Part shown: positions 24,327 to 28,574 of the stretch, one piece after another | Layout of the letters: the number at the start of each line of letters is the position of its first letter | Position numbering within the stretch: position 1 is the stretch's first letter | Origin: a virus | Lineage: Duplodnaviria > Heunggongvirae > Uroviricota > Caudoviricetes | Reading direction: 5' to 3' (one strand) | Virus record (IMG/VR): IMGVR_UViG_2703718855_000003 | Span: 1-42,021 of that record | DNA length: 42,021 nucleotides | The notes under the pieces: model-generated | Databases searched by the model: none | Told to the model about the DNA's origin: nothing | Seen by the model: only the letters and a program-made list of their open reading frames with translations | Translations under genes and position numbers: made by a program

Positions 24327-24409
24327 GTAAAAACACCCTGTCAAAGGCACCCGCAGATGCCTTTTGTGTGGTGTTATCTGATGTGATGTGCGCCGGGCGT
24401 GGCGCGGAT

Positions 24410-24476
24410 ATGAAAAAGGCCCGCCGGAGCGAGCCATAAAAAACTGAATAAAAAAAAACCGCCAGGTGCGGCGGTT
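24410..24476 (-). repeat. Copy 1 of a 65-bp direct repeat ending in a terminator hairpin (downstream of tRNA-Gly)
   Basis: ATGAAAAAGGCCCGCCGGAGCGAGCCATAAAAAACTGAATAAAAAAAAACCGCCAGGTGCGGCGG; minus-sense CCGCCGCACCTGGCGG followed by a T-run. Near-identical copy at 25091-25153. Confidence 0.6.
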
Positions 24477-24728
24477 AAGGATGTATTTCCGGGCTTGGCT
24501 TAGTATATGACCAATCACAGTTTTGTTTTTGTCGATGTTTACAACATCAGAATAATGCATTTAAAGTAGTAAAAATATTTGCTAATAATGCATTATTCCG
24601 ATGGTGTAAAAAATGGCACTGGAACCGCAACGAATATCACTCATTACAGAACAGGGGGCGCAAGGAACCATAAAAAACACCCTACATATATTATGTCAGT
24701 GCCTAACACAATCTCGCCTTAGTTACTG

Positions 24729-24803
<75 letters not shown>

Positions 24804-25090
24804 ATACTGTGCTGGCCCCCGGAATAACACGAATTACCAAGAGAGCCCGCACTGGTCTTTCCGGTGGCAAACAGCACCCCTGCTAACATAAAAGATAAAC
24901 ACCTTCCAGACGCAAAAATACTAACAACTGTTTTTCAGATATCCAAAATATATTTGGTTTTTATTTTTGAAAATATGTATACATATGTATCATAAATATA
25001 CAAGCCATATCATAACCGAATTAAAAATCTTTAGTTATCTCTTTTGCCGTCTGATCACCACCCACCGGCAGCTGAGAATTCCGGCACACA

Positions 25091-25153
25091 ATGAAAAAGG
25101 CCCGCCAGGGCGAGCCATAAAAACTGAATAAAAAAACCGCCCGGGGCGGCGGC
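25091..25153 (-). repeat. Copy 2 of the 65-bp direct repeat / terminator (downstream of the degenerate tRNA-like sequence)
   Basis: ATGAAAAAGGCCCGCCAGGGCGAGCCATAAAAACTGAATAAAAAAACCGCCCGGGGCGGCGG; minus-sense hairpin followed by a T-run. Confidence 0.6.
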
Positions 25154-25519
25154 TAAAACGATAAAAGGACACAATATTATAATGATTATTGGGTTTGGGG
25201 CATCGGGTGCCTCCCGAAGTATTCCACTTTACGTGGATACTGTGGTTTCCCGCTAAACCGACTCTATAAACCACCCTCGCACTGAGGAACGCCCCAATTC
25301 ATGTTTTCCGACACAGAGATGGCGCATCACTGGTTACTCCACGCTAAATCCTGCTTCCTTTCGTGGGCAATGCGCCATTTCTGTGTCATAAAAAATACAG
25401 CACTGAGTCTGTAACCGATCTCCATTACAGAATGAGGGACGATAAAGGTATTAAAGAGATCTGTTCCTCACGAAAACCGCCAGTGCTGTAAAAACTTGTC
25501 CAAAAAACAATGAAGTTGC

Positions 25520-25590
25520 GGAGAACAGGAATCGAACCGGCATTACCAACCTAAGGCTGATGTAATAACCACTATACGATACCTGCATAT
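25520..25590 (-). pseudogene. Degenerate tRNA-like sequence (decayed copy sharing the D-arm and T-loop of the tRNA-Gly scaffold)
   Basis: Reverse complement GCAGGTATCGTATAGTGGTTATTACATCAGCCTTAGGTTGGTAATGCCGGTTCGATTCCTG... shares the D-arm and T-loop with the tRNA-Gly at 24729-24803, but acceptor and anticodon stems do not pair. Confidence 0.4.
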
Positions 25591-26107
25591 AGAGCAGGCC
25601 TCCGTAACCACAATAATGACACTGATACCGATAACAGCCCTTCATTATGATTAAACGGATGCCAGCAATGACCCGCAAGACAGCGGGTAACACCCCTGTG
25701 AACAGAAACTTGCTGCCTTTCGGGTCGAGAGTAATATTACCGATAATTTATATGACATCAAAAACTAATTAGTTTTCATATTTAAACATATGTATAAATA
25801 TGTATCAGACGCATACAATTTATGTTATTTCATCCAGACTTCTGATTTCTCACAGGAAATTGCGAAAAAAAACAACATAAAAATGAACAAATTGGGAGTA
25901 CGCTAACTCCGTTGTCGCAATAAATCACAGTAAGCTCTTCAGAAATAACAGTTCACAAGACTTACATCAACAGTAGTTTTTGTAATGATTAATGTTAACT
26001 GTAGCGTTGAAAAGAAAAGTTTTGACGAAATATGGTGAACTAACAGAGCCTAACGAATAGCCCTATTACGCCGAGCTAATAGCGCTGCCAGCTAAACTTG
26101 CATGGAA

Positions 26108-26184
26108 TGGTCCGCCACCGAGGACTCGAACCTCGCACAATCAACTTAGAAGGTTGATGCTCTATCCCGATGAGCTAGTGGCGG
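26108..26184 (-). tRNA. tRNA-Arg (anticodon UCU)
   Basis: 77-nt cloverleaf: acceptor CCGCCAC/GTGGCGG, D-arm GCTC-ATCGGGATA-GAGC, anticodon arm TCAAC-CTTCTAA-GTTGA, T-arm CGAGG-TTCGAGT-CCTCG, encoded CCA. Confidence 0.85.
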
Positions 26185-26186
26185 AA

Positions 26187-26262
26187 TGGTGGCCCTTGCT
26201 GGATTTGAACCAGCGACCTGGCGATTATGAGTCGCTCGCTCTCACCACTGAGCTAAAGGGCC
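26187..26262 (-). tRNA. tRNA with CAU anticodon (tRNA-Ile2/ileX-like; Met not excluded)
   Basis: 76-nt cloverleaf GGCCCTT...AAGGGCC-A-CCA, anticodon loop CTCATAA; closely resembles E. coli ileX as recalled; 2 nt upstream of the tRNA-Arg. Confidence 0.85.
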
Positions 26263-26402
26263 GATTGAAAAATATTGACTGAATCAGTTTAGCGCTGTAA
26301 TCCACCCAACACAACCGTTTAAATCTTGTATGTCAGCTACAATCAAGTAAAAATATCTGAACAACAAGCAGAAAAGTCTATATCCCGGTTACTCATAATG
26401 TT

Positions 26403-27116
26403 TTAGCGCACTTTGACTATATTAATTTCAAATTCATCTGTATGTGCGCTATTAAGTATAACGAAATTCGTACTACCGTGCCTGTACGATTTTGATAAAA
26501 CCAAGCGATCACCATAGCGAGCAAGAACGTAATACCAAACGCTCTCATAGTGAAGTGTCTGATACTCCTTCTTAAACTGAGGTTTGTACCATCCAGCAAT
26601 AAGCGAAAACAACCAGAAATAGAGCATGAATCCGGCCATAACACACTCAATCTTGTGATGCCGAATAAAAGACACTTCAGAAATACATTTAACGTAAATA
26701 AACTTCCTGCCCGTTCTGACGAACATGGTAATTATTAATGCCACAATAGCGCATAAAACCAATGCATCTGGTACAAAGTGCTGATGAATTACCGAAAACT
26801 CCAGAGCCGGAGGAACAAAAAGCAACAATATCGCAAGAAAAAGCCTGACAGCACTCAAATCCTTCATATTATTTTTTTGTTTGATCCCCAGAAAGAAGAC
26901 AATACCGATCCCCCATCCAGCCAAGAATATAACGATAACTGTGACAGCATAAAACAGGCTTCTGGCCACATCATCAACACCGGCCCCGACAACCCACCAT
27001 GGAAAGCCATAGTAAAAGGAAGTACCCCAGCCATAGAAATAAGCACTTCCCCACCCAAGACACCCCATGTAAGCAACAAAAAGTGAAGAATTCCTGAGCA
27101 GAGTACTGTCACTCAT
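26403..27116 (-). CDS. AT-rich polytopic membrane protein (lysogenic-conversion / exclusion candidate)
   Basis: Track ORF 26403..27122; ATG at 27116 has an AGAGGA Shine-Dalgarno. About 5 Trp/Tyr/Gly-rich hydrophobic segments in the first 190 aa, then a charged tail; AT-rich codon usage. Confidence 0.55.
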   Translation of the reverse strand: MSDSTLLRNSSLFVAYMGCLGWGSAYFYGWGTSFYYGFPWWVVGAGVDDVARSLFYAVTVIVIFLAGWGIGIVFFLGIKQKNNMKDLSAVRLFLAILLLFVPPALEFSVIHQHFVPDALVLCAIVALIITMFVRTGRKFIYVKCISEVSFIRHHKIECVMAGFMLYFWLFSLIAGWYKPQFKKEYQTLHYESVWYYVLARYGDRLVLSKSYRHGSTNFVILNSAHTDEFEINIVKVR

Positions 27117-27734
27117 AATCATCCTCTAACAACTTAACAACATTAACTCGCTTTACATAACAAAGAAAATTCCATGTAGTCAAGAGGGTTCAGGAAAGGA
27201 GAAACTAAAATTGCATAGCCATCATAAAGTTTAACGTACCAACCTGCTTTTTCAGGTATAAAAAAACCAACCTCAAGGAAAGGCTGGCATAAGAAAAGTA
27301 AATAATGATTCCACTAAAACTTCGTCGCAGGAGGAATCCTGTGCCGCTTAACATACATAAAATTTAGACAACTAACAATCACAATATAAAATATTTAAGA
27401 TTTCGTTATCAAAATACCAGTCAGTAGAGCGCCAGCTCTCCCGTAGATGGTTAAACATAACAACAAAACCCGCTCAATGGCGGGTTCTGGTGAAGTTCAT
27501 GCGATTAATTCGCCACGCGATACAGCTTTGCGAAGCGTATCGGAATTGAAGCAGTTTATGCGTAAGAAATCAAGCCATTTTTTGAGCAAATGATTCTCGC
27601 ATGGGAATGTATAGCGCACACTCAGCAACAGCCAACCAATTAGCAATTCGCTTTGACCAGTTGTATATGCGCCATTGCTGTCTCCAATGGCGCTGTAGGT
27701 TGCCAGTTGTTCAGGCTGGCTTACGAATTATAAC

Positions 27735-28030: not shown

Positions 28031-28058
28031 AATAAAAACAAAAACCCGCCGAAGCGGG
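28031..28058 (-). terminator. Intrinsic terminator downstream of hok
   Basis: Minus-sense AACCCGCTTCGGCGGG followed by TTTTTGTTTTTATTTT. Confidence 0.45.
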
Positions 28059-28128
28059 TTAAGTGCGGGTGCGTTGAAGATGCCTGACACATCATAGGCG
28101 GCGAGGGATTTCTCCCTCGCCTGGTCTC

Positions 28129-28284
28129 TTACTCCTCAGGTTCGTAAGCTGTGAAGACAGCGACCTCCGTCTGGCCGGTTCGGATTCGTACCTCGCAGAG
28201 GTCTTTCCTCGTTACCAGTGCCGTCACTATGACGGTTAAACAGATGACGATCAGGGCGATTAACATCGCCTTTTGCTGCTTCAT
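28129..28284 (-). CDS. hokD: Hok-family type I toxin (small membrane peptide); overlapping upstream mok-like frame extends to 28341
   Basis: 51 aa MKQQKAMLIALIVICLTVIVTALVTRKDLCEVRIRTGQTEVAVFTAYEPEE: Hok signature (hydrophobic helix, LCE(V/I)R, periplasmic tail). The track ORF 28129..28341 is the mok-type overlapping frame. Confidence 0.85.
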   Translation of the reverse strand: MKQQKAMLIALIVICLTVIVTALVTRKDLCEVRIRTGQTEVAVFTAYEPEE

Positions 28285-28574
28285 AGCCTGCTTCTCCTTG
28301 CCTTTCGGCACGTAAGAGGCTAACCTACATTTGTGAGACATAGATTGGGCCTCAGATTAATGTTAAGCGTCTTGCAGGACGCGTAATGTTAACTGGGGCT
28401 TTTCTCTATCTGCCTTTGGTGTTCATGCCCGAGGCAGATAGCCTCAAGCACCCGCAGCAATTCTACTTAACTCTCCTTTTCCCGCAAACCGTTTTTATCC
28501 CCAGCGGCAAATCGAATACACCACCAGCGCCACCGCCATCGCAATTCCTACCGTGGTGAATGCCTCAGGCCGGG

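Follow-up and report, generated by a model that had tools for sequence, protein, structure and literature searches.

The stretch of DNA analysed here (the window, 42,021 nt, positions 1 to 42,021 of IMG/VR record IMGVR_UViG_2703718855_000003) contains a lambdoid prophage, Rac-like and oriented along the minus strand, in which an open reading frame (ORF, 26403-27116) between the hok locus and a tRNA cassette encodes a small inner-membrane protein. Sequence comparisons place its product in the TfpB/STM1630 family. They also reveal that the gene is part of a cassette bounded by a conserved promoter-like element, and that members of the family occupy a near-constant position behind the late antiterminator gene Q in phage genomes. 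This gene had been catalogued before and is an ordinary one for prophages. What is new is the joining of the prophage ORF, TfpB of Moraxella and STM1630 of Salmonella as one family, together with the cassette, its promoter-like element and its near-fixed place. We tentatively interpret the ORF as a lysogenic-conversion envelope factor that would alter cell-surface behaviour in the animal host, rather than as a phage-defence or lysis protein.

The ORF encodes a member of the TfpB/STM1630 family

The longest reading frame at this locus covers 26403..27122 on the minus strand. The slightly shorter frame starting at the ATG at 27116 (237 aa) is the likely gene, because a GAGG stands 6 nt ahead of this ATG and is directly abutted by the ATG at 27122. 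RefSeq annotation gives the same coordinates in the identical prophages of strains RM11911 and VG48B2, and the intact product matches WP_001285363.1 at 100%. More than 120 homologues of the product were found and the ratio of nonsynonymous to synonymous substitution rates of the gene is 0.05-0.2 in unsaturated comparisons. Therefore, the ORF is not a chance reading frame, and it is under purifying selection.

The preliminary description of this DNA recognised no family for the product. This does not hold, since the protein belongs to PHROG 1521 (annotated as unknown function; E 1.6e-85, residues 17-237 against positions 1-221 of the 222 of the profile) and to Pfam PF27470. PF27470 is the precomputed label of every homologue found, and one of these is a cluster representative 98% identical to the ORF product. 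PF27470 is named 'TfpB' by a second annotation source, and the newer RefSeq name for the Escherichia coli relatives, given by the Prokaryotic Genome Annotation Pipeline, is 'STM1630 family protein'. A Pfam scan with a copy lacking PF27470 gave no real match; its hit to an 'Apicomplexa microprotein' family was noise (16 bits for a cut-off of 27). NCBIfam release 20 and a sequence search of the PDB gave no usable match either, and literature searches on PF27470 and phrog_1521 found no publication.

A profile search of 1.84 billion proteins returned only 71 matches. Distant full-length members are encoded by Neisseria, Actinobacillus, Gallibacterium, Avibacterium, Pasteurella and Klebsiella, and a search seeded with such members led to a Moraxella protein named 'protein tfpB' at source. 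In a direct BLASTP comparison, Moraxella TfpB is 26% identical to the ORF product across residues 10-234 (E 8e-19). Closer relatives, 46-48% identical, come from Salmonella subsp. arizonae and diarizonae and from serovar Blitta. Furthermore, the ORF product has the architecture of the family: 235-260 aa, an N-terminal motif rich in aromatic residues and glycine, several transmembrane helices and a small C-terminal beta domain.

The link with Moraxella raises the question of whether the protein modulates type IV pili or pseudopili by binding pilin-like subunits, such as those of the PpdD/HCP pilus or the pseudopilins of type II secretion. Moraxella TfpB is encoded between type IV pilin genes, and one relative of the ORF adjoins the genes of the heat-labile toxin (LT), which is secreted by a type II system. 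TfpY and FimB, other and apparently unrelated pilin accessory membrane proteins, provide a precedent for non-enzymatic pilin binding (PMC11841053). However, among the contexts examined, only the Moraxella locus has pilin genes linked to the family gene, so that such linkage is not family-wide: it was found neither in the window nor in the Avibacterium, Neisseria animaloris, Mannheimia, Klebsiella, Salmonella and Citrobacter loci, nor in any other enterobacterial context. In addition, the predicted architecture of TfpY-like proteins is different, with three transmembrane helices and larger periplasmic beta domains. Hence, a role as pilin modulator appears very unlikely.

A cassette with a promoter-like element behind the antiterminator gene

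The ORF was described as strongly AT-rich compared with neighbouring phage genes. Its GC content is indeed below that of the adjacent lysis and replication genes (41.2% versus 50-56%), but 'strongly' overstates the case, as the entire stretch 24400-27700 is AT-rich (41.5% GC). Against the 47.3% of the window as a whole, the ORF is lower by about 1.5 standard deviations (4.2% for windows of 714 nt), and 10.8% of such windows are as GC-poor as the ORF. The homologous genes have a GC content of 31-38%. The separate AT-rich region upstream of the ORF is present, 27100-27399 having 34% GC.

An alignment of the upstream regions from nine contexts places the border of the cassette. In six of them (the window, an O157-type prophage, phage 434, an enterotoxigenic E. 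coli [ETEC] plasmid, E. albertii and an Escherichia sp.), homology starts about 70 nt ahead of the ATG at CCTCTTGAC. This border coincides with a putative sigma-70-type promoter made of a -35 TTGACT (27183-27178), an 18-nt spacer, a TG (27162-27161) and a -10 TATGTA (27159-27154). Among 80 IMG/VR contigs bearing the ORF family, which served as our viral sample, 78 carry the motif TTGACn-15 nt-TGnTA at 67-68 nt ahead of the ATG, and these represent 28 distinct upstream sequences. The hexamers are conserved across the contigs, whereas the spacer and the leader vary. An identical upstream sequence can follow either of two Q families, which indicates that the element goes with the ORF rather than with the antiterminator gene. 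The generic promoter scan did not report it because its -10 matches only three of six consensus positions; its conservation and fixed distance from the ATG nevertheless suggest promoter activity. The possibility that the TTGAC element is a phage late promoter was rejected: the element is found downstream of the terminator, accompanies the ORF whichever Q family precedes it and is retained on the ETEC plasmid, which has no Q gene.

The position of the family gene behind Q is also nearly constant. A Q-like gene lies upstream of it in 79 of the 80 viral contigs, at a distance of 211-457 nt in 76 of them, and four Q families are involved. For instance, phage 434 has the order Q82-like gene, terminator, homologue, TciB, esterase, holin, and the same arrangement after Q occurs in O157:H7, in a uropathogenic E. 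coli strain and in an O157-type prophage. The hairpin with a T-run that had been noted upstream of the ORF, at 27466-27485, was found on the strand of the gene at 27489-27464 as a 10-pair stem (six G-C pairs) followed by TTGTTATGTT. A similar hairpin stands behind the antiterminator gene of the O157-type prophage and of phage 434, and the annotation of phage 434 calls it a terminator. The hairpin upstream of the ORF is therefore probably the late terminator tR' and not part of the ORF gene.

Both an atypical composition and unrelated contexts (four Q families, plasmids, chromosomal islets) were thus found for this gene. This agrees with its earlier designation as a moron and specifies it: the ORF moves as a cassette with its promoter-like element. 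No conserved 3' flank of the family gene was found, and the terminator scan detected no terminator-like site between the ORF stop (26403) and the tRNA (26262).

Such a setting may suggest a late lytic accessory protein, expressed mainly from the late promoter via Q and acting at the membrane in lysis, for instance by adjusting when the holin acts or by preventing injection by progeny phage into cells that are being lysed. Indeed, the gene comes first past the Q-like gene and the terminator, and upstream of the holin, in almost every phage context. Nevertheless, several observations make this role quite improbable. The conserved promoter-like element of the gene lies downstream of the terminator, the holin is 0.7 to 4 kb away with other morons in between, and Pfam and PHROG searches gave no match to a holin, antiholin, spanin or endolysin family. 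Moreover, the gene is intact in the absence of lysis genes on the Shigella virulence plasmid pINV, on the ETEC plasmid and in Salmonella and Citrobacter islets. The prophage itself has separate annotated holins and an endolysin.

Predicted structure and topology of the protein

AlphaFold2 modelling with 24 close homologues gave a mean confidence score (pLDDT) of 63, which rose to 78 (pTM 0.68) when distant members were added (41 homologues). The latter model has long helices at 10-36, 47-78, 89-111, 116-138 and 155-181, and a C-terminal domain of five beta strands at 184-235. The preliminary description counted about five hydrophobic segments rich in Trp, Tyr and Gly. Five helices are modelled, but the richness is mainly that of helix 1 (12 of 27 residues), which is itself weakly hydrophobic (mean Kyte-Doolittle hydropathy 0.52); helices 2 and 5 are less rich. 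The charged tail of about 50 residues was correctly perceived: it comprises 56 aa, about 30% of which are charged or His.

The strongest conserved motif of the family is GWGSAYFYGWG..YYGFPWW..DDVARSL. Among 41 diverse sequences, only A15, A25, Y26, Y28, G37, P39, F167, G175 and Y195 occupy columns conserved at 90% or more, G175 being invariant. The charge distribution suggests that the Lys/Arg-rich loops 79-88 and 134-158 are cytoplasmic. If so, the GFPWW loop, the DDVARSL start of helix 2 and the C-terminal barrel would be periplasmic, and the conserved motif and the small beta-barrel would thus face the same compartment. Since no polar catalytic residue is conserved family-wide, binding of a membrane or periplasmic partner is likelier than catalysis, and the protein most likely acts in a non-enzymatic manner.

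Fold searches with the AlphaFold2 model gave no significant match. The weak matches to MscS-like and to SH3/Sm-like folds were not retained as evidence of relationship. An oligomeric channel or small transporter of MscS type, built from glycine-rich helices and a beta domain, would be consistent with the Gly-x-Gly and GxxxG-like runs of helices 1 and 2 and with the top Foldseek matches in the PDB, which are non-significant and correspond to MscS and YnaI chains with the same helices-then-beta layout. Neither sequence nor fold similarity to transporter families was found for the ORF product, and we regard such a channel as highly improbable. More generally, the comparisons revealed no homology between the product and either housekeeping transporters or holin and lysis families, the two kinds of kinship that had been named beforehand as arguing against a moron function.

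Family members outside prophages

Homologues were detected in 1197 of 5426 complete E. coli genomes, and many relatives lie outside prophages. Shigella plasmids account for 106 records with a relative, among them the virulence plasmid pCP301 (pINV), whose copy lies in a region rich in insertion sequences near spa40. An ETEC plasmid copy is divergent from eltAB and still has a remnant of the prophage tRNA attached. On this plasmid (NZ_CP028195.1, locus extract L006, 3988-6900), the TfpB-family gene flanks eltAB and is followed by the first bases of the tRNA. This suggests that this flank of the LT locus derives from the Q-to-lysis region of a lambdoid prophage. One relative is a pseudogene near iroBC and that of Citrobacter rodentium adjoins a split lpxR. 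The lipid A deacylase gene lpxR also recurs near the family gene in phage 434 (L004, 2666-5717), within about 1.3 kb, C. rodentium (L025, 4863-6717), where it is directly beside the gene, being an unrelated context.

Distant members are carried outside prophages by animal-associated Neisseriaceae, Pasteurellaceae and Moraxella. Those of Avibacterium, Neisseria and Mannheimia stand alone among housekeeping genes. A distant member from Klebsiella (about 22% identical) lies in a mobile-element remnant (L021-L023, 5274-8517) whose other genes include an SRAP-domain gene, umuDC-like genes, a resolvase gene and, in one locus, a reverse transcriptase gene.

The Salmonella relative located beside sseJ is STM1630: it has the same length and the same neighbours, and a published deletion primer matches the aligned Salmonella sequence. 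One study (PMC6785131) describes STM1630 as a gene of unknown function to which H-NS binds and whose transcription start site and -10 element are its own; expression was reported in macrophages and in medium inducing Salmonella pathogenicity island 2 (SPI-2). According to the same study, it is silenced by two single-nucleotide polymorphisms in ST313 strains and missing from S. Typhi, and its mutants were reported to be attenuated in calf and chick infection screens (PMC6785131). STM1630 is also listed among the genes co-regulated with SPI-2 (PMC2639726), and a hypermotility phenotype was recorded in a high-throughput screen (PMC4219756).

These data bear on another possible function, namely superinfection exclusion or abortive infection, in which the protein would block incoming phage DNA or kill the infected cell and thereby shield the lysogen. 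The ORF encodes a polytopic inner-membrane protein with a predicted periplasmic domain, is borne by a prophage with an apparent promoter of its own and sits in a known moron hotspot. Known exclusion proteins such as HK97 gp15, P22 SieA and T4 Imm are similarly small inner-membrane proteins without enzymatic motifs. However, PADLOC defence models gave no family at E <= 1. Furthermore, many members are stand-alone chromosomal genes outside prophages (Neisseria, Mannheimia, Avibacterium) and others are carried by virulence plasmids, whereas expression of the Salmonella orthologue accompanies that of the SPI-2 regulon in macrophages, where phage pressure is not expected. A role in exclusion is therefore unlikely. 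The preliminary description had left lysogenic conversion and exclusion or abortive infection side by side; the former is the better match for the indirect evidence, namely the co-expression of STM1630 with SPI-2, the reported attenuation and the stand-alone relatives.

A putative lysogenic-conversion factor

The structure of the cassette, the spread of the family outside phages, its presence in loci involved in host interaction and the expression data from Salmonella all point to lysogenic conversion, which we put forward as a tentative interpretation. The cassette of about 0.8 kb is self-contained, comprising the promoter-like element, the Shine-Dalgarno sequence and the ORF, and sits just behind the Q-like gene and the tR'-type terminator, ahead of the tRNAs and the lysis genes. 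In the lysogen, the gene would be transcribed from its own promoter. It would probably be silenced by H-NS on this AT-rich DNA and switched on under host-like conditions, as has been reported of the Salmonella orthologue. In intact phages, read-through from the late promoter may add to this expression, while in the window the own promoter would be the only possible driver. The protein would then bind a membrane or periplasmic partner.

Several points weigh against lysogenic conversion. The near-constant place of the gene as the first of the late operon suits a role in the lytic cycle equally well, and the virulence genes nearby may owe their proximity only to shared insertion in islets of AT-rich DNA. 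STM1630 itself has weak or inconsistent phenotypes: deletion in strain 4/74 raised macrophage replication instead of lowering it and the single deletion had no growth defect (PMC6785131), and hypermotility is not among the phenotypes confirmed in a follow-up study (PMC4534456). Besides, the promoter consists of a conserved motif only, with a -10 matching the consensus at 3/6 positions, and the AlphaFold2 model is of moderate confidence, with no fold match backing any particular mechanism.

A broader and more speculative proposal, which we consider rather unlikely as a whole, is that TfpB/STM1630 proteins are mobile, H-NS-silenced inner-membrane factors that are carried by prophages, virulence plasmids and islets of animal-associated Proteobacteria and tune a surface machine (pili, flagella or a secretion system) in host colonisation. 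The E. coli prophage copy, present in about one fifth of complete genomes, would then be an unrecognised lysogenic-conversion gene.

The family is common in E. coli genomes and on Shigella plasmids and also occurs in ETEC, Salmonella and Citrobacter, and these copies are now united with TfpB of Moraxella. As it stands, the ORF encodes an ordinary hypothetical membrane protein of a prophage, whose setting is well described. It also offers a defined object for experiments, namely a 0.8-kb cassette with a predicted transcription start and a testable topology. If the protein is a colonisation or envelope factor, its gene would be a widespread and overlooked lysogenic-conversion gene; if it is a phage-exclusion protein, it would found a new defence family.

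Loss of the Q-like gene and neighbouring features

The placement of the ORF between the hok locus (upstream) and the tRNAs (downstream), as given in the preliminary description, is accurate (Table 1). In the sister prophage of RM11911, the order is hok, NinB-like gene, HNH gene, DUF1133 gene, ORF, tRNAs, holins. The DUF1133 protein is intact in that strain and matches phrog_753, 'anti-termination protein Q-like' (E 1.3e-77). The window is identical to the RM11911 prophage except for a deletion of 1320 bp, on either side of which the two blocks align at 100% identity. This deletion removed the NinB-like gene (DUF1367), the HNH gene (DUF1364) and the Q-like gene, of which only the last 28 codons are left. 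The Q-like gene is thus lost in the window and, having no late-gene activator, this prophage cannot switch on its own late genes.

In the window, a 268-nt insert (27195-27462, minus strand), present in only 5 of 5426 E. coli genomes, separates the tR'-type hairpin from the cassette. It contains a promoter-like site and a terminator-like hairpin stronger than that of tR', and could yield an RNA of about 115 nt. Nothing exceptional was found in the fold of this putative RNA (z -1.9), and Rfam gave no match.

Other observations concern the flanks. Just downstream of hok, positions 28039-28120 (minus strand) give a weak match to isrK, a small RNA of Salmonella Gifsy-1 (26.7 bits for a gathering score of 50), which overlaps a terminator-like hairpin at 28060-28043. 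On the other side, the 1.3 kb between tRNA-Arg and tRNA-Gly (24804-26107) have no annotated gene and a GC content down to 30%. Within them, positions 25517-25586 (minus strand) score 31.8 bits with the Rfam tRNA model (gathering score 29) while ARAGORN finds no tRNA; this is probably a decayed tRNA gene.

Table 1. Coordinates of the ORF, its upstream signals and its neighbours in the window
Feature	Position	Strand	Basis or remark
TfpB/STM1630-family inner-membrane protein ORF, 237 aa	26403..27116	-	= WP_001285363.1, PHROG 1521, BLASTP, dN/dS, AlphaFold2
Shine-Dalgarno GAGG, 6 nt 5' of ATG 27116	27123..27126	-	direct sequence reading
Sigma-70-type promoter-like element	27154..27183	-	homology start between unrelated contexts; fixed distance from ATG
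Terminator-like hairpin, 9 pairs and T7 run	27259..27288	-	terminator scan; inside the 268-nt insert
Promoter-like site TTGATA-18-TATATT	27383..27412	-	10/12 matches; about 115 nt before the 27288 terminator, same insert
Hairpin, probable tR'-type late terminator	27464..27489	-	81 nt past the stop codon of the Q-like gene
C-terminal remnant (28 codons) of the Q-like antiterminator gene (DUF1133, phrog_753)	27570..27656	-	pseudogene in VG48B2 annotation
1320-bp deletion junction versus RM11911, 3-bp overlap	27652..27654	.	blastn: two 100%-identical blocks meet there
tRNA(CAT), annotated tRNA-Ile	26187-26262	-	downstream neighbour of the ORF
tRNA-Arg(TCT)	26108-26184	-	downstream neighbour of the ORF
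hok	28129-28341		upstream of the ORF
sok	28279-28453		upstream of the ORF

Comparison with known systems

Moraxella bovis/lacunata TfpB shows full-length homology to the ORF product (261 versus 237 aa). Both share the N-terminal AY.YGWG...GYPWW motif and the C-terminal YYIL beta domain. The genes differ in their setting, as that of Moraxella lies between type IV pilin genes, whereas that of the window lies in a prophage late region without pilin genes. Like Moraxella tfpB, the genes of the TfpY/TfpX/TfpZ/FimB-like proteins adjoin pilin genes. These proteins are likewise small, non-enzymatic inner-membrane proteins with a periplasmic C-terminal beta domain. However, they are predicted to have three transmembrane helices and two beta-sheet domains, whereas four or five helices and one small barrel are predicted for the ORF product, so that the predicted architectures differ; the likeness, drawn from their published description, is an analogy only.

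STM1630 resembles the ORF in that it is AT-rich, equal in length (717 nt) and acquired by horizontal transfer as a unit of one gene. It differs in its location, a chromosomal islet between steB and sseJ instead of a prophage. It has a mapped promoter of its own, but its upstream region is not homologous to the promoter-like element of E. coli. Moreover, published expression data and weak infection phenotypes exist for STM1630 and not for the E. coli gene.

Among phages, the 'putative membrane protein' CPT_434_68 of phage 434 is 58% identical to the ORF product. Its gene also lies directly behind a Q-type antiterminator gene and a terminator and has the same promoter-like element, but the antiterminator is Q82-like, and TciB/DUF3927 and esterase genes come next instead of tRNAs.

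The interval between Q and the lysis gene S of lambdoid phages carries various cargo genes, such as stx, nmpC/lc porin genes and tRNA genes. These lie in the same insertion hotspot as the ORF, past the late antiterminator gene and ahead of the lysis cassette, although their products are unrelated to its product, and a toxin or porin function is not suggested for the latter. What these cargo genes and the ORF may have in common is a dual control, by their own promoter and by late read-through.

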